Shown here: positions 13,444 to 51,118 of the stretch, in pieces
Numbering within the stretch: the stretch's first letter is position 1
Layout: each line of letters opens with the position of its first letter
Program-made: the position numbers and the translations under genes
From: Candidatus Limnocylindria bacterium
GTDB taxonomy: Bacteria > Chloroflexota > Limnocylindria > QHBO01
DNA length: 64,000 nt
Assembly (NCBI GenBank): GCA_050692055.1
Contig: JBOGTC010000013.1
Location: forward strand, 2,202 to 66,201
Reading direction: 5' to 3'
Notes under the pieces: generated by a model
The model's input: only the letters and a program-made list of their open reading frames with translations
Databases searched by the model: none
What the model was told of the DNA's origin: nothing

Positions 13444-13467
13444 GGGACGCCAGGCGACGTATCCACT

Positions 13468-13497
13468 GATCGGGGCGGCAGCAATGCCGCCCCGATC
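13468..13497 (+). terminator. Candidate intrinsic terminator hairpin after P1
   Basis: Perfect 13-bp stem gatcggggcggca / tgccgccccgatc with loop gcaa, 25 nt after the stop. No obvious T-tract. Confidence 0.45.
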
Positions 13498-13556
13498 ACT
13501 ATCCTGCGGTGGGACTCGAGCTGGAGGATCAATGTGCGCGGACGCTCCCGCGGCTG

Positions 13557-17859: not shown

Positions 17860-18471
17860 ATGCGCGACGAACGGTGGCTCTATCTGGGACTCAAGCGCGT
17901 GATTGACCTGCTCGTCGCGGTCACGCTGCTGCCAGTGATCATCCTGGTCCTGGCAGCCTGCGCGCTCGCGGTACGCCTGGACTCCCCCGGACCGATCCTC
18001 TTCACGCAGCTGCGCACCGGCCGCCACGGCAGCCGCTTCCGCATGTACAAGTTCCGCACCATGGTTCAGAACGCGGAAGAGCTCAAGGCGAGCCTTGCCC
18101 ACCTCAGCATCGTGCCGCCGCCTGACTTCAAGGTCATCGACGACCCACGCATCACGCCGGTCGGCCGCTTCCTGCGCAAGACCAGCCTCGATGAGCTGCC
18201 GCAGATCATCAATGTGCTGCGTGCCGAGATGAGCCTGGTCGGTCCTCGACCGACATCGTTCGAGCCATCCACCTACGAGCTGTGGCATACCCAGCGCCTC
18301 GAAGTGCCGCCGGGCATCACGGGCCTGTGGCAGGTGAAGGGCCGGAACGAGTCGACCTTCGACGAGCGGTTGCGCCTCGACATCGAGTATCTCAACCGGA
18401 TGTCGGTGGGGCTCGACATGCGCATCCTCTTCCTCACCGTGGCCTCGGTCGTTCGCCGCTCCGGGGCCTGA
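17860..18471 (+). CDS. Priming phosphoglycosyl transferase (small bacterial sugar transferase, WbaP/PglC type)
   Basis: Has [10 protein letters not shown]...[27 protein letters not shown]...[38 protein letters not shown]...PGITGLWQV. Confidence 0.9.
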
Positions 18472-25360: not shown

Positions 25361-26299
25361 TTATGCCCAGGCGGACAGGTCCAGACCCGTCTGCTCCGCG
25401 AGCCGCCGATTGAGCGGTGCGAACTCCGCGTCCAGCTCCTTCAGCACCCGGACATCATCGTCTGACCTGGCTTGCTGCCCGCGTCGTACGTTCATCGCAG
25501 TGTATGGCCGGGTCAGTGCCTTGCGAAGGGCACGCTTCAGTGAGCTCCTCGGCAAGAGCCGCCCCATCCTCAGTCTGGTTCGCTGCAGCATCTGGAGGCG
25601 GACGTTGTAGGTCTGCTTCTTTCGGGGGAAGTGGTAATCCGCGTAGTACCCCTGGTCGATGCCAAGCGCCGCAGCCACGCTGCGCATGAAAGCCGACTGA
25701 TCTGCCTGCAGAGCCTCGAAGAGGAAGAGATGCAGGTTCTGCGGCGGAAACCTGGACAGCCAGTCGCCCAGGTAGTCACTGTACCGACTGAACTGGATCC
25801 CGTACTCGGACCACGCCTCGCGTTCCACTCGCTCCACCCCGCCTGGAACCGACTGAAATGAACCTGCGCCGGTCCGAAGCATCGACACGAAGTCTCGGAA
25901 TGTCGTGGCCGGGCTGATGATCGCCATGTTGTTGCGGGCGTACTGGTAGAAGGAATACGTGCGTTCCGAGGGCTTGCGAAGCACGAAGACGACCTGGGGT
26001 GCCGGGTCCAGGCTGGAGAGGACCTCCAGGGCGGTTCTACGGTACAGGTACTCGGGCGTGGCTTCGAGGATGACCTGGGCCCGGGCAGGATCGCAATGCG
26101 CGAAGAATGATTCGTAGCCGGCGAGTCCGTGATCCGCGTAGTTACACGCAGGATTGAATAGCGGTGTTCCGCGATCGACCAGGTAGTGGGTCTCCTTCAC
26201 GCTGGCGCCGCATACCTGCGGATGGTCGTTCAGCCACGCAAACAGCGAGGTCGTGCCCGACTTCGGTGCTCCAGCGATCACGACGTTTGGCAGAGTCAT
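25361..26299 (-). CDS. Sulfotransferase (PAPS-dependent family) 3, close paralog of 22208-23185
   Basis: Has MTLPNVVIAGAPKSGTTSLFAWLNDHPQVCGASVKETHY and VLRKPSERTYSFYQYARNN. Confidence 0.85.
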   Translation of the reverse strand: MTLPNVVIAGAPKSGTTSLFAWLNDHPQVCGASVKETHYLVDRGTPLFNPACNYADHGLAGYESFFAHCDPARAQVILEATPEYLYRRTALEVLSSLDPAPQVVFVLRKPSERTYSFYQYARNNMAIISPATTFRDFVSMLRTGAGSFQSVPGGVERVEREAWSEYGIQFSRYSDYLGDWLSRFPPQNLHLFLFEALQADQSAFMRSVAAALGIDQGYYADYHFPRKKQTYNVRLQMLQRTRLRMGRLLPRSSLKRALRKALTRPYTAMNVRRGQQARSDDDVRVLKELDAEFAPLNRRLAEQTGLDLSAWA

Positions 26300-28394: not shown

Positions 28395-28597
28395 TGGCGG
28401 ACATTCTCCCCTATCCTGTCTACCGAGCAAGCGGCGCCGCCCGTCAGCTGCCCGGCGATGCGTCGTGGACGCGACGCTGAGGCCCATTGTACTCGGGCGG
28501 GTCGCGGTGGCGAGGGGTGGACTACCGCGCGAGCAAGGAGCATCGGCGTGCAATGTGAACGACGGCTGAACCGATTGATGCCTTCCCAATCGCCGGC

Positions 28598-30157
28598 ATG
28601 AATCGGTCCGTCGAATCCGAGGAGTCGGCGACCCAACGCCCCAGGCCGGAGGCCAGAACGACCAGGCGGCAGATTCGCGGATCGAGCCTTCTGCTGATCG
28701 GGCGCGGCCTCTCAATGGCGGTCAATTTCGGCGTCCAGATCCTGATCGTCCGCTACTTCTCGAAGCCGGAGTTCGGCGCCTACGCCTACGCCCTCTCCGT
28801 GGTCAATGTGGCTTACACGTTCGTGACCTTCGGTCTGGACCGCGCGGTGACGCGTTTCGTGCCGATCTACGAGGAGCAGGGAGCCTACGCCAAGCTCTTC
28901 GGCACGCTCGCCCTCGCATTCGGCGCGGTCCTCTCGCTGGGAACCCTGGCGCTCATCGCCATCTATGGGCTGCGGGGCTGGATCGAGGATGCCCTCATCG
29001 GCGACCCGCTCGTCCTCAGCGTCCTGGTCGTCCTGATCCTGATGGCGCCCATACGGGCGCTGGGCGACGTCTTCCTGGGGTTGATGGCCGTCTTCGCCAG
29101 CCCGCGCGCGATCTTCTTCCGACGTCACATCCTTCCACCGCTGCTGCGGGCGGTCCTGGTGGGCGTGCTGATTGCCGGCCAGTTCGACGTCGTCTTCTTT
29201 GCCGCCGGTACCGTCGTCACGTCCATCATCGGCTCGCTGGCGTATGTCGTCGTCCTGGCCAACGTGATGCGACGGCGCGGTCTCTTCGGCCGCTTTGATC
29301 GAGCCAGCTTACGGATTCCGTTTCGCGAGGTGCTCGGCTTCACGGTTCCGCTGCTGACGAGCGACCTCGTGTTCGTCGTCATGCACGCCTCGGACGCGTT
29401 GCTGCTCGGGTATTTTCACAATGCGCAGGCGGTGGCCGAGTTCCGGGTTGTGCAGCCGGCCGCCGACCTCAACGTCCTGGTGATGGGCAGCTTCACGCTT
29501 CTCTTCACGCCAATGGCCGCGCGCCTCTTCGCTCGACACGATCACGCTGGGATCCATGAGCTGTACTGGCGTACTGCAGCGTGGATGGCCATCCTGTCCC
29601 TTCCGATCTTTCTGCTGACCTTCTCACTTGCTGGCGATGTTGTCGTGGCTCTGTACGGGGATCCGTATCAGGCGTCGGGTGTGTACCTCACGCTGCTGGC
29701 GCTGGGCTACTACTTCAATGCCGCGCTGGGGTTCAACGGCCTGACGCTCAAGGTCTTCGGAAAAGTACGCTACGTCGTCATCATCAACCTGGCGGTGGCG
29801 GTCCTCAACGTGGCGCTCAACCTTCTCCTGATTCCGTCGTTCGGGGCGCTCGGAGCAGCCATCGGCACCCTGATCGCCATGGTGGTCCACAATTTCCTCA
29901 AGCAGGCCGGGCTTCAGCTCGTTGCCGGACTGTCCATCTTCGACCCCGAGTATGCACGCCTGTATGCGCTCATCGCCCTCAGCTCGGTTGGGCTACTCGC
30001 GATCCAGCTGCTGCTCCACCCACCCCTCTACATCGGCTTCGTGCTCGCGGCTGGCATATCGCTGGCCGTCACCGTGCTGAACCGGAAGCTGCTCGACGTG
30101 CCGCGGACATTCCCCGAGCTGCTTCGCATCCCGCTGGTGCGCAGGATCTTCGGCTGA
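28598..30157 (+). CDS. Polysaccharide flippase (Wzx, MOP/PST superfamily)
   Basis: About 12-14 hydrophobic segments. The N-terminus GSSLLLIGRGLSMAVNFGVQILIVRYFSKPEFGAYA is typical of PST flippases. Confidence 0.8.
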   Translation: MNRSVESEESATQRPRPEARTTRRQIRGSSLLLIGRGLSMAVNFGVQILIVRYFSKPEFGAYAYALSVVNVAYTFVTFGLDRAVTRFVPIYEEQGAYAKLFGTLALAFGAVLSLGTLALIAIYGLRGWIEDALIGDPLVLSVLVVLILMAPIRALGDVFLGLMAVFASPRAIFFRRHILPPLLRAVLVGVLIAGQFDVVFFAAGTVVTSIIGSLAYVVVLANVMRRRGLFGRFDRASLRIPFREVLGFTVPLLTSDLVFVVMHASDALLLGYFHNAQAVAEFRVVQPAADLNVLVMGSFTLLFTPMAARLFARHDHAGIHELYWRTAAWMAILSLPIFLLTFSLAGDVVVALYGDPYQASGVYLTLLALGYYFNAALGFNGLTLKVFGKVRYVVIINLAVAVLNVALNLLLIPSFGALGAAIGTLIAMVVHNFLKQAGLQLVAGLSIFDPEYARLYALIALSSVGLLAIQLLLHPPLYIGFVLAAGISLAVTVLNRKLLDVPRTFPELLRIPLVRRIFG

Positions 30158-30159: not shown

Positions 30160-31353
30160 ATGCGCATCCTGTACATCACGGACGCCTTTCCGTGGCCGCT
30201 CACCAGCGGCCACCTTCGGCACTATCACCTGATCAGGGGCTTGTCCCGGCGTCACTCGGTGAGCCTGCTGTCCATTGTTGGCGCTGACTTCGATCACCGT
30301 CGCAGCGATGCGCTGCGACCCTTCGCCGAGCGCATCCATACGTTCCCGACGACGGGACGCCGGCCGCCGACCCAGCTGCGCTCCGCCCTGCCATCTCGTG
30401 CCGTGGCGGCCGCGGAGCAGCTGGCACGCGAGGCGCTGGAGCTCACCAAGGACGGCGGCTTCGACGTCTGCCTCCTGACCGGCAGGCGCGCCTACCCGGC
30501 GCTCTCACGCCTGGCGGACATCCCGTTGGTGGCGGACGTGTGCGACGCAACCTCGAGCCGGATGCGCGGCGCGCTGAGCCACGCCGGCGGCTCCAGCAGG
30601 CCGCTGCTCTATCTGCGGTACCTCTGGGCAAGGCATGCCGAGCGTCAGGTGATCGCACGGGCAGAGCATCTCGTCTTCGCATCGCCGCGGGACCGCGATG
30701 CGCTGGTCGATCGCAGGACGCGAGGCCACGCCGCGATCGTGCCGAACGGAGTCGACGACGACTATTGGCGTCGGAGCACGACGCGGCTGGGCAGTCACGA
30801 GGTCGTCTTCACGGGCGCGATGAGCTACCCACCGAATGCGGATGCGGCCGTCTACCTGATCCGCGAGATCATGCCCCGGGTTCAACGAGAGGTGCCCGAG
30901 GCGAGCCTGTCGATCGTTGGCCGCGATCCGACACCCGAGCTGGTGGCTGCCGGCAGCCGCCATGGTGCCACCGTGACCGGCTACGTCGACGACATGCGCC
31001 CTCACCTGGAGCGCGCGGCCGTCTTCGCGGCGCCGCTGCGCTTCGGTTCAGGAATCCAGAACAAGCTCCTCGAGGCGATGGCGATGGAGGTGCCGGTGGT
31101 GGCATCACCGCTGGCGGGCGAAGGGCTCACGACCGAGGACGGGGCGTTGCCACCCATCGGCCTGGCCGAGGATGCCGGAGAGTTCGCCCGGCAGCTCGTG
31201 ACCCATCTGCGCAGCGATCAGCCCGAACCGAGCCGGCTCGGGCGCGCGTTCGTGCAGCAGCACTTCAGCTGGCCCAGCAGCGTCGAGCGGCTCGAAGCTG
31301 TTCTCAACCGCGCCGGAGCACCAACCGAGCAGCGTTCCAGCAGTCAGCGATGA
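30160..31353 (+). CDS. Glycosyltransferase family 4 (stp1-like)
   Basis: ATG at 30160. Has MRILYITDAFPWPLTSGHLRHYHLIRGL... and SGIQNKLLEAMAMEVPVVASPLAGEGL. Confidence 0.85.
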   Translation: MRILYITDAFPWPLTSGHLRHYHLIRGLSRRHSVSLLSIVGADFDHRRSDALRPFAERIHTFPTTGRRPPTQLRSALPSRAVAAAEQLAREALELTKDGGFDVCLLTGRRAYPALSRLADIPLVADVCDATSSRMRGALSHAGGSSRPLLYLRYLWARHAERQVIARAEHLVFASPRDRDALVDRRTRGHAAIVPNGVDDDYWRRSTTRLGSHEVVFTGAMSYPPNADAAVYLIREIMPRVQREVPEASLSIVGRDPTPELVAAGSRHGATVTGYVDDMRPHLERAAVFAAPLRFGSGIQNKLLEAMAMEVPVVASPLAGEGLTTEDGALPPIGLAEDAGEFARQLVTHLRSDQPEPSRLGRAFVQQHFSWPSSVERLEAVLNRAGAPTEQRSSSQR

Positions 31354-32488
31354 AGGGCACCGGATCGGCCCACGAGAAGACAGCGTCCACCTTGCGGCCG
31401 CGGATGGATCGCCACCAGCCACGGAGACTGAGCTCGCCGCGGCGCCAATGGTGCAGCGCGGCCTGGAGGTCGTGGCGCAGGTAGATCCACTTCACGGTTC
31501 CGTAGCGCTGTTTGAGACGATCCGGCAGTGGCCGCCCCGTGGCATCGCAGTACGCCGCGTACAGCAGCTCCACGCCGCCCGCCTCGGCGATGGCGGACCT
31601 GCCGGTGGGCCGGCCGACGTTGGGCTCGACGATGAAGTGCTCGCCGGTGCGAGCGTCGCGCTTCATCTCCACGTAGCCCAGCCCGCGATAGTGGCACGCG
31701 CGAAAGAGCCGAATCGTCTCGCGCAGCACGACGTCGTTGCGCACCTCCTCGCCCAGACAGCTCGTCCCCGTTTCGGGCGGCCACTGGCGAATCTTGCGTG
31801 CCACGAACGTGACGATGGGCTCCGAACGCGCGTCGAAGTAGCAGTTGCAGGAGTAGAGCTGCTCCTCCCCGCCGGCGATCCACTGCTGAGCCAGCAGGAC
31901 GTCAGTCCAGGCCGAGCAGCGGTCGTAGACCGAGAGCATCTCGGCGGCGTCGTGCACCTTGAAGGCCTTCGCTTTCGTTGCCGCCTGCCAGGCCGGCGTC
32001 TTGAGGGCAGGTTTCATGACGCCCGGGTACCGCATCTCGGCGGCGGCGGCCTCGGCATCCTGCCGGCCGCGCAGTACGAACGTCGCAGGAATGGGCAGTC
32101 CCTGCTGCTGCGCATAGGCCACGAAGCGCACCTTGTCCATCAGCACCTCGACCACCTCGGCATCGGGCAGCAGCACGTGATACCAGTCCGACAGCCGTTC
32201 CCGGCCGCGCGAGATGGTGAGCACGCTGAGATCCGTGCATGGAAAGAGAACGGCTCGCTCGCCGAGGCGTGGCCCGAGACGCTCGAGGGCGCGCAGCAAG
32301 CCCTCGCCCGAGGTTTCCGCCGCGATGATCTCCTCGCATGCCCGCGTTCGCGCGCAGAAGTGGTCGCGCCTGGCGGCGATGCCGACCACCGGGACCTTCC
32401 TGCGGGCCAGGATGCGGGCAGTCTGCAGGCCGGTGATGCAGTCGAGGCCGACGACGACCGCCGCCGGCCGCCCGCGCGTGGCGATCAC
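31304..32488 (-). CDS. ATP-grasp carboxylate-amine/thiol ligase-like protein (COG3919-type)
   Basis: Has AAVVVGLDCITGLQTARILARRKVPVVG, KVRFVAYAQQQGLPIPATF, YPGVMKP, LLAQQWIAGGEEQLYSCNCYF, and YRGLGYVEMKRDARTGEHFIVEPNVGRPTG. GTG at 32488 is preferred. The ORF extends to an ATG at 32569, which would overlap the upstream gene by 62 nt. Confidence 0.7.
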   Translation of the reverse strand: MIATRGRPAAVVVGLDCITGLQTARILARRKVPVVGIAARRDHFCARTRACEEIIAAETSGEGLLRALERLGPRLGERAVLFPCTDLSVLTISRGRERLSDWYHVLLPDAEVVEVLMDKVRFVAYAQQQGLPIPATFVLRGRQDAEAAAAEMRYPGVMKPALKTPAWQAATKAKAFKVHDAAEMLSVYDRCSAWTDVLLAQQWIAGGEEQLYSCNCYFDARSEPIVTFVARKIRQWPPETGTSCLGEEVRNDVVLRETIRLFRACHYRGLGYVEMKRDARTGEHFIVEPNVGRPTGRSAIAEAGGVELLYAAYCDATGRPLPDRLKQRYGTVKWIYLRHDLQAALHHWRRGELSLRGWWRSIRGRKVDAVFSWADPVPFIADCWNAARLVLRRG

Positions 32489-32507
32489 AGGCTGTCGAGT
32501 CGCGACG

Positions 32508-33407
32508 CTAGCGCGTCGTCGCGATCTCGTCCTCGAGGGAGATCGCCTCTGACGTGCCAACCAGATCAAAGACGTGGTTCACCGAGGCGATCGAGCCATC
32601 CACCGAGGCCGCCGTCCGTTCCCGGGCGAGCGTTGCCAGCGTCTCTTCGATCGCCTGGATGGCGGCGCGCATCGGCTGATTGGCGAGGATGACCATCTGG
32701 AAGCCCTTCTCTCGCAGCTGCTCGGCACTGAACGACGGGAAGAGCGTCGGCACGGCGACGAGGGGAGTCTTCCCGAGGCCGCCCCATTGCCCAAGGAAGC
32801 CCTCGATCTCCCCCAACGTCTTGTCGCGGGAATGGATGAGGATCGCATCGGCACCGGCATTGACATAGGCATCGGCACGCTGGCACGCGTCCTCGATGCC
32901 GTGGCCGGCGATGAGCGACTCGATGCGGGCGATGAACACGAAGTCGTCGCTCTGCTGGGCAGACTTCGCGGCTCGGATGCGGCGAGCCTGCTCCTCGACC
33001 GGGATCAGCTCACGCTTGGACTCTCCCAGGTACAGGCTGTTGCGCTTGGGGAAGAGATTGTCCTCGACGCAGATGGCCGCGATGCCGGCTCGCTCATACT
33101 CGCGGACCGTGCGGACGACGTTGGAGAATCCGCCGAACCCGTTGTCGCAGTCGGCCACCACCGGCAGATCGGTCGCGGCGTCCATGCGGACGGCAGCCTC
33201 GAGCGCCTCGCTCATGGTGATCAGGTTCAGATCCGGCATCGCGTAGGTCATGGTCGAGACGGCCAGGCCGCTCACCCACACAGCGTCGAAGCCATTAGCC
33301 TCGATCAGCTTCGCGGTCAGGGCGTCATGCGCCCCAACAGCCAGGACCGGCCTCGGTCCCTGCAGCCCGTTGCGCAGCGCCTGCCTCTTGGCGTCAGCCT
33401 TCGTCAC
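32508..33407 (-). CDS. PEP mutase-like enzyme of the isocitrate lyase/PEP mutase superfamily (motif EDN-x5-NS)
   Basis: Has AVGAHDALTAKLIEANGFDAVWVSG, VVADCDNGFGG (metal-binding Asp pair) and CVEDNLFPKRNSL. It lacks the KRCGH motif of methylisocitrate/isocitrate lyases. Confidence 0.65.
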   Translation of the reverse strand: MTKADAKRQALRNGLQGPRPVLAVGAHDALTAKLIEANGFDAVWVSGLAVSTMTYAMPDLNLITMSEALEAAVRMDAATDLPVVADCDNGFGGFSNVVRTVREYERAGIAAICVEDNLFPKRNSLYLGESKRELIPVEEQARRIRAAKSAQQSDDFVFIARIESLIAGHGIEDACQRADAYVNAGADAILIHSRDKTLGEIEGFLGQWGGLGKTPLVAVPTLFPSFSAEQLREKGFQMVILANQPMRAAIQAIEETLATLARERTAASVDGSIASVNHVFDLVGTSEAISLEDEIATTR

Positions 33408-34348
33408 TTGGCGATCCCCTCTTTCTCATTGCCTTCGAGCGCTCGGATGATGCGGACGATCTCTCGACCGATCTCGCGTTGCGAATCGATGGTGGTGGCC
33501 CCGATGTGCGGGGTCAGGATGACATTCGGCAGCGCGGCGAGCGGCGAGATCTTGCCCTCGCCCTCCTGCTCGTGCACGTCCAGGCCGGCACCGGCGAGAC
33601 GCCCCTCGGTCGTCAGCTCCCGATGAAGGGCCTCCTCGTCGACGACTCCCCCACGTGCCATGTTGACCAGGAAGGCGCCCGGCTTCATGGTGGCCAACGC
33701 TGCGGCGTCGATCAGCCGATGGCTGGACTCCTTGAGCGGCACGTGGACGCTGACGAAGTCGGCCTCCCTCAGCACGGCCGCGCAGTCCATCAGCTCGATG
33801 CCGGCGTCGGCCAGCTCCTGGGCTCGCGTCGAGCTCGGCGACTCCACGCAGCCGATGACACGCATGCCCCAGGCGGCTCCCAGGCGCGCGACCTGTCCAC
33901 CGATGTTGCCGACGCCGATGACGCCCAGGGTTTTTCCGACGAGGAGGTGGCCGATCACCTCTCCCTTGGCCCAGTGGCCCTGGCGCAGCAGGCGGTCTGC
34001 AAGCATGATCTGGCGCGCCAGCGCCAGCATCAGCCCGAAGCTGAGCTCCGCGACCGCCTGCGCTCCAGGGCCGGGAATGCGCTCCAGGCTGATGCCGCGT
34101 CGCCGAACCTCCTCGAGATCGAGGTTGTCCAGGCCGGACCCGGCCCGGATGATCGTCCTGAGCTGCGGTGCGCACCCCAGCACCGCCGCGCTGACGCGGA
34201 CGCCACTGCGAAAGACGAGGACCTGCCGATCACCGATGAGCGACTTGATGCGGTCCTCATCCGCGTTCAGGGCGAACACGACGTCGTGGCGCGAGCTCAG
34301 GTACTCGACCGCCCTGTCGTCGATCGAGCTGGCAACGAGGATCCTCAT
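33404..34348 (-). CDS. D-isomer-specific 2-hydroxyacid dehydrogenase (3-phosphoglycerate dehydrogenase-like)
   Basis: Has GSGLDNLDLEEVRRRGI, GKTLGVIGVGNIGGQVARL (NAD fold), VSVHVPL, LVNMARGGVVDE and TPHIGATT. It has 4-nt overlaps with both neighbours. Confidence 0.85.
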   Translation of the reverse strand: MRILVASSIDDRAVEYLSSRHDVVFALNADEDRIKSLIGDRQVLVFRSGVRVSAAVLGCAPQLRTIIRAGSGLDNLDLEEVRRRGISLERIPGPGAQAVAELSFGLMLALARQIMLADRLLRQGHWAKGEVIGHLLVGKTLGVIGVGNIGGQVARLGAAWGMRVIGCVESPSSTRAQELADAGIELMDCAAVLREADFVSVHVPLKESSHRLIDAAALATMKPGAFLVNMARGGVVDEEALHRELTTEGRLAGAGLDVHEQEGEGKISPLAALPNVILTPHIGATTIDSQREIGREIVRIIRALEGNEKEGIAK

Positions 34349-35067
34349 CGCTGTCTCGCCGAAGCGGCGACGGCTCGGCGGCCGCGACGACGCTGTTGGT
34401 GGAACCGCCGCACGAGCCGGGCAACGTCCCCCACCACCGCATCGAGCGGCCGATCAACGTCGACCAACGCAAAGGCAGGGGCCAGCCCGGCCGTTTCGAG
34501 ATACTCGCTCCGCCGGCGCTCGAGCGACTCGAGCGTTCCTTCGCCCTTCCGCGCGAGAAGGACCGCGGCGGGGGCATCCAGGTAGATCACCAGGTCCGGC
34601 CTCGGATACACGCGCCGCAGCAGAAGACCGTGCAGGCGATTGGCAAGAGGGCGTCCTCTCCCTGAGTTGATCACGTCGTAGGCATGGTAATCGGCGAGGA
34701 AGTGCCGATCGAAGATGACGATCTTCCCGCGCCGGCGATGGTAGGACGCCAGGGCCTGCCGGAACCATTCCTCCCCGATCCAGTTGGCCATCCGCAGCGC
34801 GGCCTTCAGCTCCCGCCGGGCGCGCGACATGGGGCCGGCCGCACCGGGATCTCGCTCCGTGTCGGAGGCGGCCACCATGTCTGATCGGCCTCCTCGCGCG
34901 CGCTTCAGGGCCAGGACCAGGCGAGTGGTAGGCAGCATCACCCCACTGGATTCAAGGTTGACGCCCATGTACAGATACTTGGCTGGAAGACCGAGCTTGC
35001 GCTCGAGCAGCCGGGCGACTGTGGTCTTGCCCGCCCCGTCGGGCCCGATGAGCGCCACCGTGAACAT
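34345..35067 (-). CDS. P-loop NTPase / small-molecule-kinase-like protein (thymidylate-kinase-fold-like)
   Basis: Walker A ALIGPDGAGKTT. IVIFDRHFLADY is Walker-B-like. PDLVIYLDAPAAVLLAR is lid-like. Paralog of 50192-51118. Confidence 0.6.
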   Translation of the reverse strand: MFTVALIGPDGAGKTTVARLLERKLGLPAKYLYMGVNLESSGVMLPTTRLVLALKRARGGRSDMVAASDTERDPGAAGPMSRARRELKAALRMANWIGEEWFRQALASYHRRRGKIVIFDRHFLADYHAYDVINSGRGRPLANRLHGLLLRRVYPRPDLVIYLDAPAAVLLARKGEGTLESLERRRSEYLETAGLAPAFALVDVDRPLDAVVGDVARLVRRFHQQRRRGRRAVAASARQR

Positions 35068-35077
35068 CGCGTTCTCC

Positions 35078-36184
35078 TCAGCTCAGGTGAGGAGCCATGG
35101 CGTCGAACAGCGCCGCCACGGGGATCGGGTAGGGGTGACGCACGATATAGCTTGGCCTTCCCTTCAGCATCCGGGCAAGCTGCTGGTGCTCGCGTTCCGT
35201 CACGTGATCAAGCAGGTCGTTTCGTCGCTCGGGGAATGCGAAGCGAAACTTCAGGTAGTAGGCCACCAGATCCAGCCGCTCATGGTGCAGCGAGAAGGCC
35301 ATTCGCGCAGCAACCTCATCCGAATCGATCGGCTCGACGGTGACCCGCTCGCTGGCGTGACTCACCACGAAGAAGATGCGCTCCGGCGTGCCGCCAGCCC
35401 TGCATGCCGCTTCACCGAAGAGCCGTTCCGGCGCAAGATGGACGAAGAGTTGGCGCTCGATCAACGGCATGGCGCGCCGCATCATGGCGCGTGGGCCGCC
35501 ACCCTGCCGTGCGCCTCGCGCGAGGCGCGTCACCGAGGCCAGACCACCGAGCCGCGCCCGATCACGCCATCCGACCCGGCTCCGATATTCCGGCACCTGT
35601 GAGAGATGCCAGTCCCACAGCTTGATCGGCTCGGGCAGCCCGACCATCCGCCTGCCCCCGTCAGCGAGGTACACCCACTCGTCACCGATGTAGCTCGCGC
35701 CGTTGCGCATGAACGCCAGGAGGGCTTCCGTCTTGCCACCCTTGGCCCATCCGGTCACCAGGGCATCCATGCCGCGGTACTGGAACGCGGAGGCGTGCAG
35801 AGCAACGGCGTCGTTGCCGAGCGCCGTCAGGTTGATGATGGGCACCAGCAGCGGAACGGCAGGCACGCCACGCTCACACACGATCTCGCACGATCGTCCA
35901 ACTCGGTCGAGCGGGATCTGCACCCGGGCACGTGCCTTGTACTTGCTGCGCAGCACGAGAAAAGCGTCGTCGGTGTAGGCAGCGTCATCCAGCCCGACCA
36001 GTCGCGGTGTCGAGCTGAGCGACAGGCGATCGACGAATCGGATCACGATGTCTGGCTCGCGATCCAGGTTGCCCTGAAGCGGCCCGAGCTGGCGGTCCAC
36101 AGCCGCCGCATCCCGCGGAGCGGCGTCGATCAGACGAATGCCAACGAGGCCGTGAAGGTCATAGTCAATGCGCTCGCTAGGCAC
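35078..36184 (-). CDS. HPr-kinase-C-terminal-domain-like (HprK-related) kinase
   Basis: LHASAFQYRGMDALVTGWAKGGKTEALLAFMRNGASYIGDEWV matches the HprK pattern HAS..v..G.GvLi.G.SG.GKSe.AL.L...G..lv.DD. GTG at 36184 overlaps the upstream epimerase stop by 8 nt. The longer ORF to 36352 would overlap it heavily. Confidence 0.6.
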   Translation of the reverse strand: MPSERIDYDLHGLVGIRLIDAAPRDAAAVDRQLGPLQGNLDREPDIVIRFVDRLSLSSTPRLVGLDDAAYTDDAFLVLRSKYKARARVQIPLDRVGRSCEIVCERGVPAVPLLVPIINLTALGNDAVALHASAFQYRGMDALVTGWAKGGKTEALLAFMRNGASYIGDEWVYLADGGRRMVGLPEPIKLWDWHLSQVPEYRSRVGWRDRARLGGLASVTRLARGARQGGGPRAMMRRAMPLIERQLFVHLAPERLFGEAACRAGGTPERIFFVVSHASERVTVEPIDSDEVAARMAFSLHHERLDLVAYYLKFRFAFPERRNDLLDHVTEREHQQLARMLKGRPSYIVRHPYPIPVAALFDAMAPHLS

Positions 36185-37163
36185 TGGCCGCTTGTGCGAG
36201 CGTCGAGGCTCGCTCCCGAACCTGCCGCTCGATCCAGCGATAGGTCGGGACCAGGCCCTCCTCCAATGAGATCTGCGGCTCCCATCCCAGCACCTCACGC
36301 AGGCGCGTGTTGTCGGAGTTTCGCCCGCGGACCCCCTGCGGACCCTCGACATGGCTGAGGGTGATGTCCTTCTTGCCGGAGATGGCGATGATGATTGCCG
36401 CCAGCTCGTTGATGCTCACCATGCGGTCGGTCCCGAGGTTGATCGGATCGCCGTGGTCTGACTGCATGATCCGGTAGATCCCCTCGACGCAATCGTCGAC
36501 GTGGCAGAAGGACCGCGTCTGTTCGCCGTCGCCCCAGATCTCGACCGTTCCCCCGGACTCGGCCGCGGCCACCTTCCTGCACAACGCCGCCGGCACCTTT
36601 TCGCGTCCGCCATCGAAGGTGCCGTTCGGGCCGTAGATGTTGTGGAAGCGTACGACGCGAGTCTCGATACCGTGCTCGCCGGTGTAGTACGTGCACAGCA
36701 GCTCCGAGATCAGCTTCTCCCAGCCATAGGCATCCTGTGGCTGGGCCGGGTATGCATCCTCCTCCTTCAGCGGCTTGACGTTGGCATCTGTCTGCAGGAA
36801 CTCTGGATAGACGCAGGCGGAGGAGCTGTACAGGTAGCGGCCCACGCCGTGCTCGCGGGCAGCCTCCAACGTATGAAAGTTCATGAGCGCGTTGTTGTAG
36901 AGGATCGTTGCGTGGTTGGCCGAGATGAAGCCCATGCCTCCCATATCCGCCGCCAGGGCATAGACCTGGTCCACCCCGCGCGTTGCCTCGACACACTCTT
37001 CCCGCAGGCGGAGGTCCCGGATCTCGAACTCATCCGCATCCACCTCGGTGAACTCCGGGTACTTGATGTCCACGCCGCGGACCCAGTAGCCCCGCTCTTT
37101 CAGGTATGTCACCAGGTGATGGCCGATGAATCCACCAGCCCCTGTCACGAGAACTCGCTGCAC
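36177..37163 (-). CDS. GDP-mannose 3,5-epimerase-like NAD-dependent SDR
   Basis: Has VLVTGAGGFIGHHL, LAADMGGMGFI, SSACVYP, YGWEKLISE (YxxxK), RFHNIYGP and GVRGRNSDN. Confidence 0.85.
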   Translation of the reverse strand: MQRVLVTGAGGFIGHHLVTYLKERGYWVRGVDIKYPEFTEVDADEFEIRDLRLREECVEATRGVDQVYALAADMGGMGFISANHATILYNNALMNFHTLEAAREHGVGRYLYSSSACVYPEFLQTDANVKPLKEEDAYPAQPQDAYGWEKLISELLCTYYTGEHGIETRVVRFHNIYGPNGTFDGGREKVPAALCRKVAAAESGGTVEIWGDGEQTRSFCHVDDCVEGIYRIMQSDHGDPINLGTDRMVSINELAAIIIAISGKKDITLSHVEGPQGVRGRNSDNTRLREVLGWEPQISLEEGLVPTYRWIERQVRERASTLAQAASA

Positions 37164-37413
37164 CGTGATGCTCCTCCCTAGGATTCGATGATCGTCCCGC
37201 GACGCGATCGCTTCGGGGACGCTGGCTATCGTGCAGCATAGGCGTCATTCGGACCAGTACCCGAGCAGTACTCCTGTTGAGCGGAGTCACCGCTTTTCGG
37301 TCCGCGTGCTTGGAGGCTGCGTGGGGCTATCATATGATGCCGCGGCCCAGGAGGGGCCGCACCACGCGTCCGGCGCGTTCGTTTGTGAGGGGGGGACAAG
37401 GCTGATCACAGGA

Positions 37414-38529
37414 ATGAGGGCGCGCCCCGTGGATGTCATGCTGGGCACTTCAAGCAGCGAGTCGGCGGTCCATCCCGTCCTGCGCCAGCTATTCGCCGCG
37501 CTCGAACAGAACCGCGTGCGCTGGTGCGTGCTGCGCGGAGAGGATCGGCTCGATGGCACGGCCGGAGACGTCGATATCCTGGTGGCCGGCGGCGATCGGG
37601 AACGGCTGCGCCGCATCGCGAGTGAGCTTGGCTTCGCTCGCATTCCGTCGTGGGGCTACGTATCGCATCTCTTCCTGCTGGCGTACGATCCGCGAAGCGA
37701 CCGCTGGCTCAAGCTCGACGTCGTCAGCGAGCTGGCGTTCGGGCCGTACTACTCGTTGCTGCTGCCAGCGGCGGACGAGTCTCTCCTGCATCGTCGGACG
37801 CAGGATGGGGTGGCGCTGCTATCCGATTCGGATGCCTACTGGGCGCTGGCGCTCCACGCCCTGCTGGACAAGCGGGAGGTCACCGACAGCCAGGCCGCGC
37901 GCCTCAAAGAGCTCGAGCCCCGAACGAGCGGCCGGGGCGCGATCGAGCGCGAGCTGACGAGGCTGGCGCCCGACGGCTGGATCGGTCGCTTCAAGCGCTC
38001 CCTGGAGCGCGGAGAATCGGTCGGCTTCGGCCAGTATGCCGACGAGCTCTCCAGAGCCTGGACGCGGCGGCAGCGCGGCGCGAGCTGGCGACGAAGGATC
38101 GCGGGCTTCATATTGCGTCGGGCCGCGGTGGTGCTTCGATTGCGCCAACCACGCGGCATGGGTGTGGTGCTGAGGCCCACCGGGCAGGCCGCCATGCTCG
38201 CGGCCGATCTTCGACGATCGTTCTACTTTCCGGTCAGGTGGCTGTCAGCCGAGGCGGCAGGCCGCGGGCCTGCCAGCCTCCTCGCCGAGATGACCCGCCG
38301 GCTGCGCTTCAGGCTCATGCGGAGCCGCGGCGCGCTGATCGTGTTGGACTGTCCCGCTCCGAGTGATGAAGATGAGTTGGTTCGTTGCGGCGGCATTGCA
38401 CCGGACGTGGTGATTGCCATCGCGCCTGGTAACGACCGCGGACAGCTACGACGCGAGGTCACCGCCGCGCTATGGCAGGCCCTCGCCGCTCAATGGAAGA
38501 AGAACGAGAGCCGAGCGAACCACCGCTAG
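37414..38529 (+). CDS. Two-domain hypothetical: nucleotidyltransferase-like N-domain (GDVDILV) plus a P-loop-kinase-like C-domain with a destroyed Walker A
   Basis: N-domain RWCVLRGEDRLDGTAGDVDILVAG...LGFARIP...YDPRSDRWLKLDVV. C-domain GVVLRPTGQAAMLAADLRRSFYFPVRWL ... RGALIVLDCPAPSD ... APDVVIAIAPGND aligns with the P-loop protein at 50192-51118. The start is uncertain (37414 or 37438). Confidence 0.5.
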   Translation: MRARPVDVMLGTSSSESAVHPVLRQLFAALEQNRVRWCVLRGEDRLDGTAGDVDILVAGGDRERLRRIASELGFARIPSWGYVSHLFLLAYDPRSDRWLKLDVVSELAFGPYYSLLLPAADESLLHRRTQDGVALLSDSDAYWALALHALLDKREVTDSQAARLKELEPRTSGRGAIERELTRLAPDGWIGRFKRSLERGESVGFGQYADELSRAWTRRQRGASWRRRIAGFILRRAAVVLRLRQPRGMGVVLRPTGQAAMLAADLRRSFYFPVRWLSAEAAGRGPASLLAEMTRRLRFRLMRSRGALIVLDCPAPSDEDELVRCGGIAPDVVIAIAPGNDRGQLRREVTAALWQALAAQWKKNESRANHR

Positions 38530-41530: not shown

Positions 41531-43129
41531 TCAGGGCCGGTGCGTCACGCCCGCCGCCGGGGCGCCCGCCAGGCTCGGCAACGCACCCGATCCGGTGACC
41601 GGTGAGCGTTCGGGTGCTGGTTCGGCGGCCTCGGCCCGTTCCCGTTCCTTTGCAAGGATCCAGACGGTGACGTTGGCAAGCGCCACCAGCAGCCAGAGGT
41701 AGCGGGCATAGGAAAGGTGCAGGAAGATGCCGGACATGAGGTATGCGGCCAGGCTGAGCTGGAAAGCTGACGCCCAATTCGCATACTCGGCACGCCGTGA
41801 CCGCCAGTAGGCTCGCGTGCGGCTCAGACCGACCCACGTCACCACAATGATCGCGAGGAACAGAGAGAGCCCCAGCAAGCCCAGGTCAGCCGCCATCTCG
41901 GCGTACAGGTTGTGTCCCCGCCGGCTGGTCCCGAAGTGTCTCATTCCGAGGTCATTCGCGACGTCCTGGGAGTACTCGACGAAGTACCGACCCGGCCCGA
42001 CTCCCACGATCGGGTTCTCGAAGAAGGTGACGAGGGCGGCGACGTTCGAGGTCGCTCGGCCGAGGATTGCCCCATCGGGGTCCTCTCCGGAGTCCGACAC
42101 GAGGCCGGCGACTCCGGTGAGCGTTTCGAGGCGCTCGACGAACTCGGGCGCGACGAGGGGAACCGAGATCGCTGCAACGAGCGTCAGCGCGAGCGCGTGC
42201 TTGAGCCTGATGTGGCGCATCAGCACGGCGAGGCCCACGACACCAACGAACGCGACGGCGGCGCCGCGCGAGAAGGTGAGGAGCATACCGGTCAGGATCA
42301 GGAAGCCGGCCACGACGGTCGCCGCACGCAGCCACCGCGAGCGCGTACTCAGGAACGCGAACGCCGCCAGCGGTAGCAGCACGATCATGATCTGGGCGTA
42401 GCGGTTCTTCGAGCCGATCGGCCCGCCGAGCCGCGGGCGCAACCCCTCCTCCACGACCTCCTCATCGGACGCCTCGCCACTCTGCGCAAAACCCCCGTAG
42501 TAGTTCTCGTAGGTTCCCGTCACCTCCTGGAAGAGCGACAGGCCGCCCATGAGCGTGCCCGCCAAGAGCAGCACGGCGATCGCCCAACGCACCATCTCCG
42601 GCGTCCGGATCGCGTTGACGACGAGTATGAAGAGGAGCATGCCTTCGGCGACATAGATGCCCATCCAAGCGGCCGAGGCGCGGACATCCGCCGAGAGGAG
42701 CGATGAGAGCATCTGCGCTCCCAGGAAGGCGATCATCAGGGGGAAGACCCTGGTCAGAACGACCTCCTGGCGGCGGATCAGGACATACCCCACGGCGGGC
42801 AGGCCGATCAGGACCGGTGACATGGCCGCCACCACGGTGGGCACCCCGTGGAAGTGCATCGCGACCACCGGCACGTTCGTATAGAAGATGAACAGGAAGA
42901 GGAGGATCGAGAGCCGCGGGTTGGCGATGAGCACGCCACCGGCGAACAGGAGCACGGATCCGAGCAAGAACGGCAGCGGGCTCTCGGCGAAGGCGATCGC
43001 GCCTCCCAGGACGGCAGCCATGGCGAGGCAGGCAACGGCGAGGAGAAGGCGGCCCCCGCGCCTGCGCTGCGTCGGGCTGACGGCGGGCAGCGGCAGGGCG
43101 GCGGGCAGCGACGGGGCGCCGGCGCTCAC
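41531..43129 (-). CDS. O-antigen polymerase/ligase family membrane protein (Wzy-like)
   Basis: About 11-12 TM segments. LLTFSRGAAVAFVGVVGL is a typical Wzy_C region. Followed by a large loop and terminal TMs. Its start overlaps the GT2 stop (ATGA). Confidence 0.75.
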   Translation of the reverse strand: MSAGAPSLPAALPLPAVSPTQRRRGGRLLLAVACLAMAAVLGGAIAFAESPLPFLLGSVLLFAGGVLIANPRLSILLFLFIFYTNVPVVAMHFHGVPTVVAAMSPVLIGLPAVGYVLIRRQEVVLTRVFPLMIAFLGAQMLSSLLSADVRASAAWMGIYVAEGMLLFILVVNAIRTPEMVRWAIAVLLLAGTLMGGLSLFQEVTGTYENYYGGFAQSGEASDEEVVEEGLRPRLGGPIGSKNRYAQIMIVLLPLAAFAFLSTRSRWLRAATVVAGFLILTGMLLTFSRGAAVAFVGVVGLAVLMRHIRLKHALALTLVAAISVPLVAPEFVERLETLTGVAGLVSDSGEDPDGAILGRATSNVAALVTFFENPIVGVGPGRYFVEYSQDVANDLGMRHFGTSRRGHNLYAEMAADLGLLGLSLFLAIIVVTWVGLSRTRAYWRSRRAEYANWASAFQLSLAAYLMSGIFLHLSYARYLWLLVALANVTVWILAKERERAEAAEPAPERSPVTGSGALPSLAGAPAAGVTHRP

Positions 43130-49044: not shown

Positions 49045-50085
49045 TCAACGACCTATGTTTGCGCGGCGCCCCAATCGAGCCGACCAGGCCAGCGCACCGA
49101 GCTGCAGGCGCAGCACGGGCAGAGCAGAGCGGCCTCCCACATTGATCCGCCGCATGCGCAGCCAGTCGGGTCGCGAGACGTCGTTGCTGCCCCGCTGGGT
49201 GGTGAAGGCGATCTGGAAGCCGGACCTTCGGACCGCAGCAACCGCCGTGGCATCCGCGCCACCTGCAGGATACGCGAAGACCGGGCTGGTGGGACCGAGC
49301 TCTCGCTCGAGATCAGCCAGCGACCCGCCGATCTCGTCTTCCAGGGCTCCGGGCGGCAGGCGATCCAATCGGGCATGCGTGCGTGAGTGCGGCAGCACCG
49401 CCAGGCCCTGCGCCGCGAGATCCCGCAGCTGCGCCCACGTCAGTACGGCGTTCGACGATGCTGCGGCACCGAGCTCGGCGATCCATCGGTCCGCCAGCGC
49501 CATGGCTTCCTCGTGCGGGAGTCGATGGAGCTTCGTCCGAAGCGTCCGATAGGCGATCAGCCTGTCATCGTGACTCCGAAGCCCGAGCGCTGCCGCGCCG
49601 CCGTCGCGAAGGGTGGGCCGGCGCGTCGTCATGAGGGCGTGATAGAGCCTGTCCCACCAGAAGCCTCGGACCGCTGCACCGGGATAGGCGGTCGGAACGA
49701 ACACCGCTGCCGGCACGCCATGGCGACGGAGCGTCGGCCAGGCGTGCTCTGCCAGGTCGCGGTACGCATCATCGATCGTGAGCAGCAGGCTCCTGCGCGG
49801 CGGGCGACCCCGGCCCTGTCGTACATCAAGGAGATCGCTGATCGAGATGATCTCGTAGTGCTGCTTCAGGAAGGTGATCTGGGCATCGAACTGGTCCGGC
49901 GTCGCGCTGATCAGCCCGGGGTACAGCTCGGGCCGATGATCGGGCTCGTCGACTCGGTGATAGGTGAGCACCGAGACGATGTCTCGAGATGGCGGCGCGA
50001 CTCTCTCGAGCGTCGCGGCCAGCCATGCCACCGCCTGGTGGTCAGACACGCGCGAAACCAGTCCCTTGATCACGTCTCCGTCCAT
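49045..50085 (-). CDS. Polysaccharide deacetylase (NodB homology domain)
   Basis: ATG at 50085. Has LTYHRVDEP, LLLTIDDAYRD, VPAAVFV and LPHSRTHARL. Confidence 0.75.
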   Translation of the reverse strand: MDGDVIKGLVSRVSDHQAVAWLAATLERVAPPSRDIVSVLTYHRVDEPDHRPELYPGLISATPDQFDAQITFLKQHYEIISISDLLDVRQGRGRPPRRSLLLTIDDAYRDLAEHAWPTLRRHGVPAAVFVPTAYPGAAVRGFWWDRLYHALMTTRRPTLRDGGAAALGLRSHDDRLIAYRTLRTKLHRLPHEEAMALADRWIAELGAAASSNAVLTWAQLRDLAAQGLAVLPHSRTHARLDRLPPGALEDEIGGSLADLERELGPTSPVFAYPAGGADATAVAAVRRSGFQIAFTTQRGSNDVSRPDWLRMRRINVGGRSALPVLRLQLGALAWSARLGRRANIGR

Positions 50086-50191: not shown

Positions 50192-51118
50192 GTGCCCGTG
50201 AATCCGCCCGCTTCCCTGCATCCGGTGCTCCTGGCCGCGGCCTCTGCCGTGGCGAGCAGCATCGGACGGCGCGCGCCGGTCGAGTACGACCACAGCGAGA
50301 CCGGCTCCGGCGAGGCGGTGGTCATCACCGTGGCGGCTGCTCGCTCAGACAACGGCATCGGACGGAGGCTGGCCGAGATGGGTTTCGCGCAGGTGGGAGG
50401 CATGCCGCAAGTCCGCCGCTACGTGGGCTACGACCCAGCCACCGATCGCTGGCTGACGCTCGAGCTGCGTCCGCAGCCAACCATGCATGCGTCACGCCCG
50501 TCGCGGGCTCGGCGCAGAATCGGTTCCGTGGTGGACTGGATCCTCGCGCGTCGACCAGGCATCACGGTCGCCGTCGTGGGGCCGGATGGCGCCGGAAAGT
50601 CGACGCTCATCTCAGGCCTGGCGCGGTCCTTCGCCCTCCCGGTGCGCACCTTCTATGCCGGCCTCTATCCCCAGGGCGAGACGCGTCGCAACGCCCTGGT
50701 GGGACTCGGCACGCTGCAGCAGCTCGTGCGCCTGTGGCGCATCCGCGCCCTGGCCTCATACCATCGCCGGCGCGGTCGCCTCGTCATTTTCGATCGCTAT
50801 CCCTATGACGCCCTGCTGCCGCTGCCACCGCGAGCCCGCCGACGCTCCAGCTGGCGCAGAGCCCTCCTGGCGCGGGCATGCGCCGCCCCGGACCTGCTGA
50901 TCGCGCTGGATGCGCCATCCGAGGTCCTTCGTCAACGACGCGACGAACATCCGGTCGAGCGCATCGAGGCTCATCGGCTTCACTATGCCGAGCTGGCCCG
51001 CACGCTGCCCAACGGCGAGCTGGTCGACGCATCGCAGGGAATCGAAGCCGTCCGCCGACGAGCGACGGACCTCGTCTGGCGACGCTACGCGAGTTCCCTG
51101 AGAGGCGCTGGTCGCTGA
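50192..51118 (+). CDS. Two-domain protein: N-domain related to 37414-38529 plus an intact P-loop kinase-like domain
   Basis: GTG start. N-domain ...LAEMGFAQV...YDPATDRWLTLELR. Walker A VAVVGPDGAGKST. Also LVIFDRYPYDA and APDLLIALDAPSEVL. Confidence 0.6.
   Translation: MPVNPPASLHPVLLAAASAVASSIGRRAPVEYDHSETGSGEAVVITVAAARSDNGIGRRLAEMGFAQVGGMPQVRRYVGYDPATDRWLTLELRPQPTMHASRPSRARRRIGSVVDWILARRPGITVAVVGPDGAGKSTLISGLARSFALPVRTFYAGLYPQGETRRNALVGLGTLQQLVRLWRIRALASYHRRRGRLVIFDRYPYDALLPLPPRARRRSSWRRALLARACAAPDLLIALDAPSEVLRQRRDEHPVERIEAHRLHYAELARTLPNGELVDASQGIEAVRRRATDLVWRRYASSLRGAGR

Follow-up and report, generated by a model that had tools for sequence, protein, structure and literature searches.

A possible decarboxylase-independent phosphonolactate cassette in the polysaccharide island of a Candidatus Limnocylindria bacterium

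A contig of a Candidatus Limnocylindria bacterium (Chloroflexota; JBOGTC010000013.1, positions 2,202 to 66,201) carries an operon in which a gene for a phosphoenolpyruvate (PEP) mutase (PepM)-like enzyme is joined to genes for a dehydrogenase, an ATP-grasp ligase and two P-loop proteins, and no phosphonopyruvate decarboxylase (Ppd) was found in the whole 64,000-nucleotide stretch analysed here, which we call the window. The locus raises the question of what such an enzyme set could make without Ppd, and where the product would go. Sequence and predicted structure led us to an answer to which we give about an even chance: five of the six genes form a cassette that, in islands encoding Wzx flippases and Wzy polymerases, would make a phosphonate acid, phosphonolactate, and fix it to polysaccharide.

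The operon and its conservation

The six open reading frames of the block all lie on the minus strand at 31304–37163, and the open reading frame list bore out every coordinate given for them in the initial annotation. From the first gene of the operon to the last, they are:

36177..37163, minus strand: GDP-mannose 3,5-epimerase homologue (PDB 8sg0/2c59, E ~1e-113), placed at the head of the operon in this genome alone
35078..36184, minus strand: HprK/PEPCK-fold P-loop kinase-like protein of 368 aa, with invariant GWAKGGKTE and GDEW
34345..35067, minus strand: dTMP-kinase-like P-loop protein with Walker A GPDGAGKTT (Thymidylate_kin, 35 bits, and several P-loop models)
33404..34348, minus strand: phosphoglycerate dehydrogenase (PGDH)-like D-2-hydroxyacid dehydrogenase, proposed to convert phosphonopyruvate to phosphonolactate as the driving step
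32508..33407, minus strand: PEP-mutase-like enzyme of an EDN-type clade (motif EDNLFPKRNS), proposed to convert PEP to phosphonopyruvate
31304..32488, minus strand: ATP-grasp carboxylate ligase, proposed to attach the acid to the glycan or to a precursor

The junctions agree with the tight or overlapping packing that had been described. As read from the sequence, the TAG stop of the epimerase gene (36179–36177) overlaps the GTG start at 36184 by 8 nt, and the stop of the mutase-like gene (32510–32508) is followed by a 19-nt gap and the GTG start of the ligase gene at 32488. A 10-nt gap separates the HprK-like gene from the dTMP-kinase-like gene, which overlaps the dehydrogenase gene by 4 nt, and a further 4-nt overlap joins the dehydrogenase gene to the mutase-like gene. 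Identical proteins were found in the public metagenome-assembled genome (MAG) GCA_975322505.1 (Candidatus Limnocylindria, Chloroflexota), on contigs CDICOX010000167 and CDICOX010000163. The window bridges these contigs at about 43068–43129, where CDICOX010000167 ends (near 43096, inside the Wzy gene) and CDICOX010000163 begins nearby, and its assembly is thus more contiguous than the public MAG; another assembly has a 71 kb contig with the same protein.

The window had been described as free of Ppd, and this held in Pfam scans, in precomputed Pfam annotations of the matching MAG contigs and in tblastn searches with Ppd-like and nucleotidyltransferase domains. By the same means, no thiamine diphosphate (ThDP)-dependent decarboxylase, aminotransferase or PntC-type nucleotidyltransferase was detected in the 64 kb. 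NTP_transf_3 and NTP_transferase had no match in the window, which holds only a PF14907-like protein at 37231–38529, and LicD-type activation genes were not found in it either.

To describe the cassette beyond this genome, we collected 45 loci of the clade to which the mutase-like protein belongs from isolate genomes, MAGs and metagenomes (given L numbers where they are named below), none of which contained a Ppd-like sequence. Among the loci with enough upstream sequence, the dehydrogenase gene lay immediately upstream of the mutase-like gene in 29 of 34 and was present in 33, showing that the latter is genomically coupled to a candidate phosphonopyruvate-consuming enzyme. The ATP-grasp gene directly followed the mutase-like gene in 18 of 26 loci, and 23 of the 26 contained it. 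When the count was restricted to the 12 loci flanked on either side by 5 kb or more, the dehydrogenase was found in 12, the dTMP-kinase-like protein in 11, the ATP-grasp and HprK-like proteins in 10 each, a polysaccharide deacetylase in 4 and a Ppd-like protein in none. The conserved unit consists of five genes, coding for the HprK/PEPCK-fold kinase, the dTMP-kinase-like protein, the PGDH-like dehydrogenase, the PepM-like enzyme and the ATP-grasp ligase. The epimerase, confirmed as GDP-mannose-3,5-epimerase-like, gave one weak match (25% identity) among 15 related loci and was rejected as a pathway member. The initial annotation had described a six-gene operon, with an enzyme trio wired to an epimerase and two kinases; five of the genes recur together, while the epimerase falls outside the unit and the association is modular, as seen in L027, L029 and L030 (described below).

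The cassette was found in Geodermatophilaceae bacterium URHB0062, Geodermatophilus sp. LHW52908, Blastococcus, Marmoricola, Acidimicrobiia, Chloroflexia, Anaerolineales and KSB1 and, judging by database names, in Myxococcales and Propionibacteriales; two of the carriers are cultured Geodermatophilaceae. Every long locus is a polysaccharide cluster with Wzx, Wzy, Wzz and glycosyltransferase genes, across several phyla. The deacetylase that recurs in these loci also has a counterpart in the window:

49045..50085, minus strand: PF01522 polysaccharide deacetylase (weak Pfam match on the matching MAG contig), proposed to expose an acceptor amine

Its orthologues (37–49% identical) are found within the cassette or next to it in L010, L013, L015, L025, L026, L027, L029 and L030, and in L010 and L013 the gene is placed between those for the dTMP-kinase-like protein and the dehydrogenase.

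With these components, a pathway of four steps can be proposed. From its homology, the EDN-type enzyme would isomerize PEP to phosphonopyruvate, which the dehydrogenase would reduce to D-phosphonolactate, a role suggested by its family, its translational coupling and near-universal adjacency to the mutase-like gene, and literature precedent. This reduction would pull the unfavourable mutase equilibrium in the manner of VlpB in the valinophos route and make Ppd dispensable. The ATP-grasp enzyme, judging from its fold and co-occurrence, would then form an acyl phosphate and couple phosphonolactate to the glycan or to a lipid- or nucleotide-linked precursor, the likeliest product being an amide on a hexosamine freed by the PF01522 deacetylase and the alternative a VanA-like ester to the 2-OH. 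Finally, in the weakest step, which is a guess, both P-loop proteins might transfer phosphoryl groups from ATP to the acceptor sugar or to the phosphonate.

The precedent invoked for the second step in the initial annotation is borne out by the literature, in which reduction of phosphonopyruvate to phosphonolactate by a 2-hydroxyacid dehydrogenase is a recognized alternative driving step (PMC8942020, PMC12871164) and VlpB was used in vitro as a working phosphonopyruvate reductase (PMC11867202). The mutase equilibrium favours PEP more than 500-fold (PMC12871164), which would also suit a catabolic pair, in which the dehydrogenase oxidizes scavenged phosphonolactate and the mutase, working in its favoured direction, yields PEP; automated annotation of one homologue as a phosphonopyruvate hydrolase (PPH) points the same way. 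We consider such a role very improbable, as no phosphonate transporter or regulator was found nearby, the genes sit, with translational coupling, within glycan biosynthesis operons of different phyla, and the ATP-grasp enzyme and the kinases would have no role in it.

The PEP-mutase-like enzyme and its partners

The product of 32508–33407 matched PF13714 (PEP_mutase) with 187.7 bits over residues 15–259 of 299. In the NCBIfam scan the PepM model, TIGR02320, remained the top match (273.2 bits), ahead of PPH (220.4) and PrpB (180), and the best PDB matches were PepM 5unc (3e-65), PPH 2dua (2e-60) and Mytilus PepM 1m1b (9e-60), while carboxyphosphonoenolpyruvate mutase, methylisocitrate lyase, petal death protein and oxaloacetate decarboxylase gave E values of 6e-35 or weaker. 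By these sequence comparisons the protein is a member of the PepM/PPH subgroup and not of the lyase or decarboxylase groups, which had been named as the outcome that would speak against a mutase.

It shares ~40–45% identity, the fold and the catalytic set with canonical PepM (Mytilus 1m1b, Streptomyces 5unc) and PPH 2dua. Conserved are W44, S46, G47, D58, D85, D87, E114, K120, N122, S123, R159 and H190, which are catalytic residues of Mytilus PepM from the Dunaway-Mariano/Herzberg work. The query and all 10 of the 10 clade members compared keep these residues; a further one, L48, is L in the query and F in 8 of the 10, and the N122/S123 pair is as in PepM and not T/S as in PPH. The sole difference from the characterized crown in the catalytic region is at K116, changed to N, so that the motif reads EDNLFPKRNS as compared with EDKxxxxxNS in characterized PepMs and EDKxxxxxTS in PPH. 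We found no literature on the role of PepM Lys116. When the clade was compared with 90 EDK-type representatives, the clade-specific changes were K116N, T88N, Q130R, F138Q and a few others.

The EDNxFPKRNS motif was present in 120 of the 120 closest database homologues (71–77% identical, plus two identical copies), and identity within the clade is 64–77% across Chloroflexota, Actinomycetota, KSB1 and Myxococcota. Against 1.84 billion representatives at 50% identity, scores fell sharply from 430 bits, for the clade's own full-length representative, to 279 bits or less, indicating that the clade is tight and isolated. Distance-based neighbour-joining trees with 40 bootstraps and three characterized anchors rebuilt from PDB alignments, which are indicative only, recovered the clade as monophyletic in 40 of 40 replicates and placed it in a basal grade of EDN-type sequences.

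The dehydrogenase matched PF02826 (2-Hacid_dh_C) with 184 bits and PF00389 with 68 bits. Its best NCBIfam model was PGDH TIGR01327 (250 bits, below the SerA cut-off of 454), as compared with ~93 bits or less for lactate dehydrogenase (LDH)/VanH-like models, and its best PDB match was the short archaeal PGDH 1wwk (1e-70), in agreement with the PGDH-like assignment made from the translation. The ATP-grasp assignment likewise stood at the level of the fold. Sequence models gave weak matches to CPSase_L_D2, Ddl and RimK, the likeness to Ddl being remote (E 8e-4), and sources name the homologues carboxylate-amine ligase or D-aspartate ligase. Foldseek searches with the AlphaFold model (pLDDT 82) retrieved biotin carboxylase, RizA, Ddl and PurK at E ~1e-16, consistent with a three-domain ATP-grasp fold; all were generic ATP-grasp enzymes, giving no substrate clue and no specific family.

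Wider relatives of the mutase-like protein offer indirect evidence on the activity of EDN-type enzymes. In seven Streptomyces genomes (L017–L023), genes for Ppd-like ThDP decarboxylases directly adjoin those of distant EDN...NS relatives; the decarboxylase there is split into alpha and beta subunits and has phosphonopyruvate decarboxylase as its best NCBIfam model, and a Ppd-like decarboxylase also adjoins such relatives in three metagenome contigs (L061, L063, L064). EDN-type domains are in addition fused to MobA-like NTP-transferase domains (NTP_transf_3), including an EDN...NS example (P0157), and one is fused to a TPP_enzyme_N domain (a weak match). Fusion to NTP_transf_3 has likewise been reported for some canonical PepMs. 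Together, the intact catalytic set, the NTP-transferase and TPP fusions and the Ppd-like neighbours suggest that EDN-type proteins are real mutases.

Two groups among these relatives have features of their own. In L017–L023 (e.g. L018, 8892–12064), the PEPM domain is of the EDNLFPKRNS type, is 34–35% identical to the query and is fused to an FMN-dependent L-lactate-dehydrogenase/oxidase-like domain (682 aa in L018). The fusion gene is preceded by the split Ppd/sulfopyruvate-decarboxylase-like alpha and beta genes, an MFS exporter gene lies ~0.7 kb downstream, and no match to the cassette dehydrogenase was obtained in these loci at E<=1e-4. This Streptomyces locus looks like a small-molecule cluster, and one that an EDKX5NS filter would also miss. 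A sizeable EDNxFPKRCS subgroup (P0122, P0125, P0127, P0134, P0138, P0144, P0163 and others; loci L059 and L060) has Cys in place of PepM Asn122. In isocitrate and methylisocitrate lyases this position is taken by the catalytic Cys of the KKCGH loop. Fusion to NTP_transf_3 is seen in many of the full-length proteins scanned, and a weak fusion to TPP_enzyme_N in one.

The proposal of a phosphonolactate decoration on a surface glycan draws support from the placement of the enzyme in the PepM/PPH subgroup, the lack of Ppd, the adjacency of the dehydrogenase and the glycan context, and is weakened by several observations on the mutase-like protein and on the make-up of the cassette. The protein scores under the TIGR02320 equivalog cut-off (273.2 against 319.55 bits) and fails the perfect EDKX5NS criterion by one residue (K116N). 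In 30 of 40 bootstraps its clade fell outside the most recent common ancestor of 5unc, 1m1b and 2dua, in the distance tree with these three anchors, and function is mixed even within the characterized crown, since the latter includes the hydrolase PPH. Other islands carry parts of the cassette. L027 and L030 encode the HprK-like and dTMP-kinase-like proteins, the deacetylase and a different ATP-grasp enzyme (ATPgrasp_Ter) with no PepM or dehydrogenase, and L029 (10001–15478) encodes the HprK-like and dTMP-kinase-like proteins, the deacetylase, the dehydrogenase (60% identical) and the ATP-grasp enzyme (65% identical), with no PepM between the last two or within 10 kb. In L029, a pepM gene might lie elsewhere on the 73 kb contig, or the dehydrogenase might accept another 2-oxo acid. 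Furthermore, the substrates of both kinases and the acceptor of the ATP-grasp enzyme in our scheme are guesses. We infer the name PEP mutase for 32508–33407 rather than assign it, because of the EDN motif, the score below the TIGR02320 cut-off and the separate clade; the mutase-like label of the initial annotation holds as far as the subgroup.

The same observations would fit an ICL/PEPM-superfamily enzyme other than a mutase (a lyase, hydrolase or decarboxylase) whose product is a common 2-oxo acid, be it pyruvate, hydroxypyruvate or a derivative of oxaloacetate, from which the dehydrogenase and the ATP-grasp enzyme would add a D-2-hydroxy acid (D-lactate, D-glycerate or D-malate) as a VanH/VanA-like acyl or depsi decoration. 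The broken diagnostic motif, the score under the PepM cut-off, the position outside the crown, the dehydrogenase and ligase of L029 and the Cys of the neighbouring EDN...CS subgroup at the lyases' catalytic position all lend weight to this explanation. We nevertheless judge it unlikely. All known PepM catalytic residues are invariant in the clade, including N122, which is Thr in PPH, and S123, whereas the loop of the lyases is Cys-Gly, and lyase and decarboxylase structures match ~30 orders of magnitude worse than PepM and PPH. VanH and VanA are alike in that a 2-Hacid_dh enzyme makes a D-2-hydroxy acid that an ATP-grasp ligase couples, but here the dehydrogenase is PGDH-like rather than LDH/VanH-like, which fits a substrate bearing a phosphate or phosphonate, the ligase is only remotely Ddl-like and the target would be a glycan instead of a peptidoglycan precursor. 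Other EDN...NS proteins pair with Ppd-like decarboxylases, and pyruvate and oxaloacetate are already available from central metabolism, which would make a dedicated enzyme redundant.

PepM, 2-Hacid_dh and ATP-grasp genes are also the hallmarks of the valinophos route (PMC8942020, PMC11867202), which brings up a diffusible small-molecule phosphonate, such as a valinophos-type ester or peptide of phosphonolactate or DHPPA, with the glycan location being incidental. As in the valinophos cluster of Streptomyces durhamensis (VlpA, a PepM, and VlpB), the cassette combines a mutase-family enzyme with a 2-Hacid_dh reductase in place of Ppd, presumably yielding phosphonolactate, and has an ATP-grasp ligase in the same cluster (PMC8942020, PMC11867202), the dehydrogenase being likened to VlpB by family and not by sequence. 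It differs in that its mutase is EDN-type, that none of the remaining vlpABCDE (DHPPA-making) core genes was found, and that it occurs in a Wzx/Wzy context with two P-loop kinases and a deacetylase; its carriers are Chloroflexota, non-Streptomyces Actinomycetota and KSB1. The Wzx/Wzy/Wzz/glycosyltransferase context of every long locus in several phyla and the co-occurrence of the deacetylase speak against a diffusible product, and no exporter, resistance gene or further reductase genes are adjacent. The cassette has one ATP-grasp enzyme only, of a family distinct from Ddl/RizA-type peptide ligases. We therefore hold this explanation to be highly improbable, and retain attachment of phosphonolactate to polysaccharide as the working proposal.

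The two P-loop proteins

For the HprK-like protein, the 368-aa start is supported by 27 homologues that align over ~99% of its length, including a conserved N-terminal DYDLHGLVGIRL, and is for this reason preferable to the 340-aa call of the NCBI MAG. The query gave no match to Pfam (including PF07475, Hpr_kinase_C, at E<=0.01), NCBIfam or PDB sequences. Its 1711 homologues are all annotated as hypothetical, and precomputed PF07475 matches were present in 4 of the 120 listed. In contrast with the sequence searches, Foldseek comparison of the AlphaFold model (pLDDT 90.8) returned ATP-dependent PEP carboxykinase (PEPCK) over most of the length (TMq 0.45–0.51) and the C-terminal catalytic domain of HprK/P (E 2e-5 to 1e-4), both with a probability of 1.00, and the label HprK-like thus holds at the level of the fold. 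The protein resembles HprK/P and ATP-PEPCK in its predicted fold and has a Walker A ending in GKTE; its GDE motif takes the place of ADD in HprK. It is 10–18% identical to these enzymes, has another N-terminal domain and differs in length (368 aa as compared with ~310 for HprK and ~540 for PEPCK). The product of 34345–35067, first called P-loop kinase-like, is more closely described as dTMP-kinase-like. Two further genes of the window are related to the latter or adjoin the operon:

50192..51118, plus strand: P-loop paralogue (AAA_33/thymidylate-kinase-like by Pfam), 32% identical to the product of 34345–35067
37231..38529, plus strand: nucleotidyltransferase-like protein with a GDVDILV motif and a degenerate P-loop half, divergently transcribed

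The paralogue adjoins the deacetylase gene and an APH-family kinase gene. The nucleotidyltransferase-like protein had no Pfam match and showed 35% identity over 265 aa to the N-terminal half of the product of L028 20051–21260, which itself gives faint PF14907 and thymidylate-kinase matches. In L028 and L029, a PF14907-like nucleotidyltransferase is fused to an intact dTMP-kinase-like domain paralogous to the cassette protein, and 37231–38529 is possibly an accessory tailoring protein.

These fusions bear on a different mode of attachment, in which phosphonolactate would be linked through its phosphonate: the two kinases would form a phosphono-(di)phosphate anhydride for transfer to a hydroxyl group of a sugar, in place of the usual CMP activation by PntC, and the ATP-grasp enzyme would amidate or cap the free carboxylate. 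NMP kinases phosphorylate a phosphate or phosphonate oxygen and the cassette protein is dTMP-kinase-like, the window has no PntC or LicD-type activation genes, and a canonical Ppm is flanked by a thymidylate kinase and PF14907 (GCF 540, Li & Horsman, PMC8942020), all of which would be in line with such a linkage. On the other hand, both kinases occur in L027 and L030 without PepM and dehydrogenase, indicating that a phosphonate substrate is not required, kinase-based phosphonate activation has no known precedent in glycan tailoring, and the cassette has no obvious transferase. We regard this linkage as rather improbable, and keep coupling through the carboxylate by the ATP-grasp enzyme as the proposed route. 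Given their presence in islands without PepM and dehydrogenase, the kinases look like a general anionic-tailoring pair that is not specific to phosphonates. With the deacetylase they look like a general tailoring module, while PepM and the dehydrogenase look like an acid-supply module, the cassette-type ATP-grasp enzyme travelling with the dehydrogenase.

Some cassette loci, KSB1-type and others, also contain beta-propeller phytase-like (PF02333) genes within or adjoining the cassette, at L024 11031–12089 and 14644–15987, L028 8891–9949 and L029 8886–9989. In L024 and L028 one such gene is placed between those for PepM and the ATP-grasp enzyme; the window has no counterpart.

The glycan island and the wider meaning of the cassette

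The operon had been described as lying next to a flippase, glycosyltransferases and a polymerase, and this was confirmed. The main features of the surrounding island are:

28715..30157, plus strand: Wzx-type flippase (Polysacc_synt/MatE on the matching contig)
41531..43129, minus strand: Wzy-type polymerase (Wzy_C, 55 bits)
22208–23185, 23298–24149 and 25361–26299: three Sulfotransfer_1 genes
54231–54860: APS kinase
54887–56062: ATP sulfurylase
56162–57931: CitMHS/Na-sulfate-symporter-type permease
58026–59030: DHH/DHHA1 phosphatase

Homologues of the flippase lie near the cassette in L005, L007, L009, L016 and L025. The island looks built for a sulfated polysaccharide, and because it encodes synthesis of 3'-phosphoadenosine-5'-phosphosulfate (PAPS) and several sulfotransferases along with the cassette, the polymer made here probably bears sulfate as well as phosphonate groups. 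In L027 and L029, related cassettes also occur together with sulfation genes of this kind; most other cassette loci lack sulfotransferase and PAPS genes, and a tie between sulfation and the cassette was for this reason rejected. A UDP-glucose/GDP-mannose dehydrogenase and a Bac_transf protein are encoded at 15734–17320 and 17860–18471, respectively; the former suggests a uronic acid in the polymer, and the latter is an initiating sugar-phosphate transferase, with which assembly of the repeat unit begins. The island also has three phosphotransferase genes of the APH family (PF01636; 7582–8874, 39755–41527 and 51123–52337), and such genes also flank related cassettes in L027, L029 and L030. Large secreted or surface proteins are encoded at 11242–15497, 20117–22129 and 26316–28715; two have SLH domains (one of them also BNR and fn3), another is Cadherin-like/Big_9/CBM96, and the product of 13509–15497 had no exact-protein match. 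Homologues of these proteins adjoin the cassette in L010, L013, L024 and L028, and the proteins may act as envelope-anchored enzymes in polymer binding or processing.

Phosphonoglycans of the 2-aminoethylphosphonate (AEP) type, made by Ppm, Ppd and AEP transaminase (AEPT) with PntC and LicD, are likewise polymer-bound phosphonates whose PepM-family enzyme is encoded in a surface-glycan cluster (PMC6697681, PMC8942020). The cassette differs from these systems in having no Ppd, AEP transaminase or PntC, in its predicted product, a C3 hydroxy acid instead of a C2 amine, and in attachment, which would probably proceed through the ATP-grasp enzyme. Nothing on this gene combination was found in the searchable literature beyond general surveys, which agrees, within that scope, with the initial view of it as undescribed: Ppd-independent reduction of phosphonopyruvate and phosphonylated glycans are known parts, while no description was found there of the combination, of the EDN-type clade or of the kinase set. 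Surveys keep only perfect EDKX5NS matches, as in Li & Horsman 2022 (PMC8942020) and in an actinomycete survey of December 2025 (PMC12723261), and this demand would filter EDN-type proteins out of the published inventories. It is a tentative suggestion, somewhat short of an even chance, that EDN-type proteins are genuine mutases dropped by such filters and that the clade installs phosphonolactate on (often sulfated) exopolysaccharides in soil Chloroflexota, Actinomycetota, KSB1 and others.

Since two cultured Geodermatophilaceae carry the cassette, direct testing is feasible. Whatever their substrates, the HprK/PEPCK-fold, dTMP-kinase-like and PF14907-like proteins form a recurring, uncharacterized glycan-tailoring set. 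Phosphonate producers have been found almost wholly through pepM searches, and a widespread, highly conserved EDN clade would be invisible to those that demand the perfect motif. If that clade is active, the EDKX5NS rule would need relaxing, and estimates of the bacteria that make C–P bonds would rise, notably for soil Chloroflexota and Actinomycetota. Phosphonoglycans would gain a C3 hydroxy-acid member made by a Ppd-independent pathway, and both the environmental capacity for phosphonate synthesis and the chemical range of phosphonoglycans would have been underestimated.

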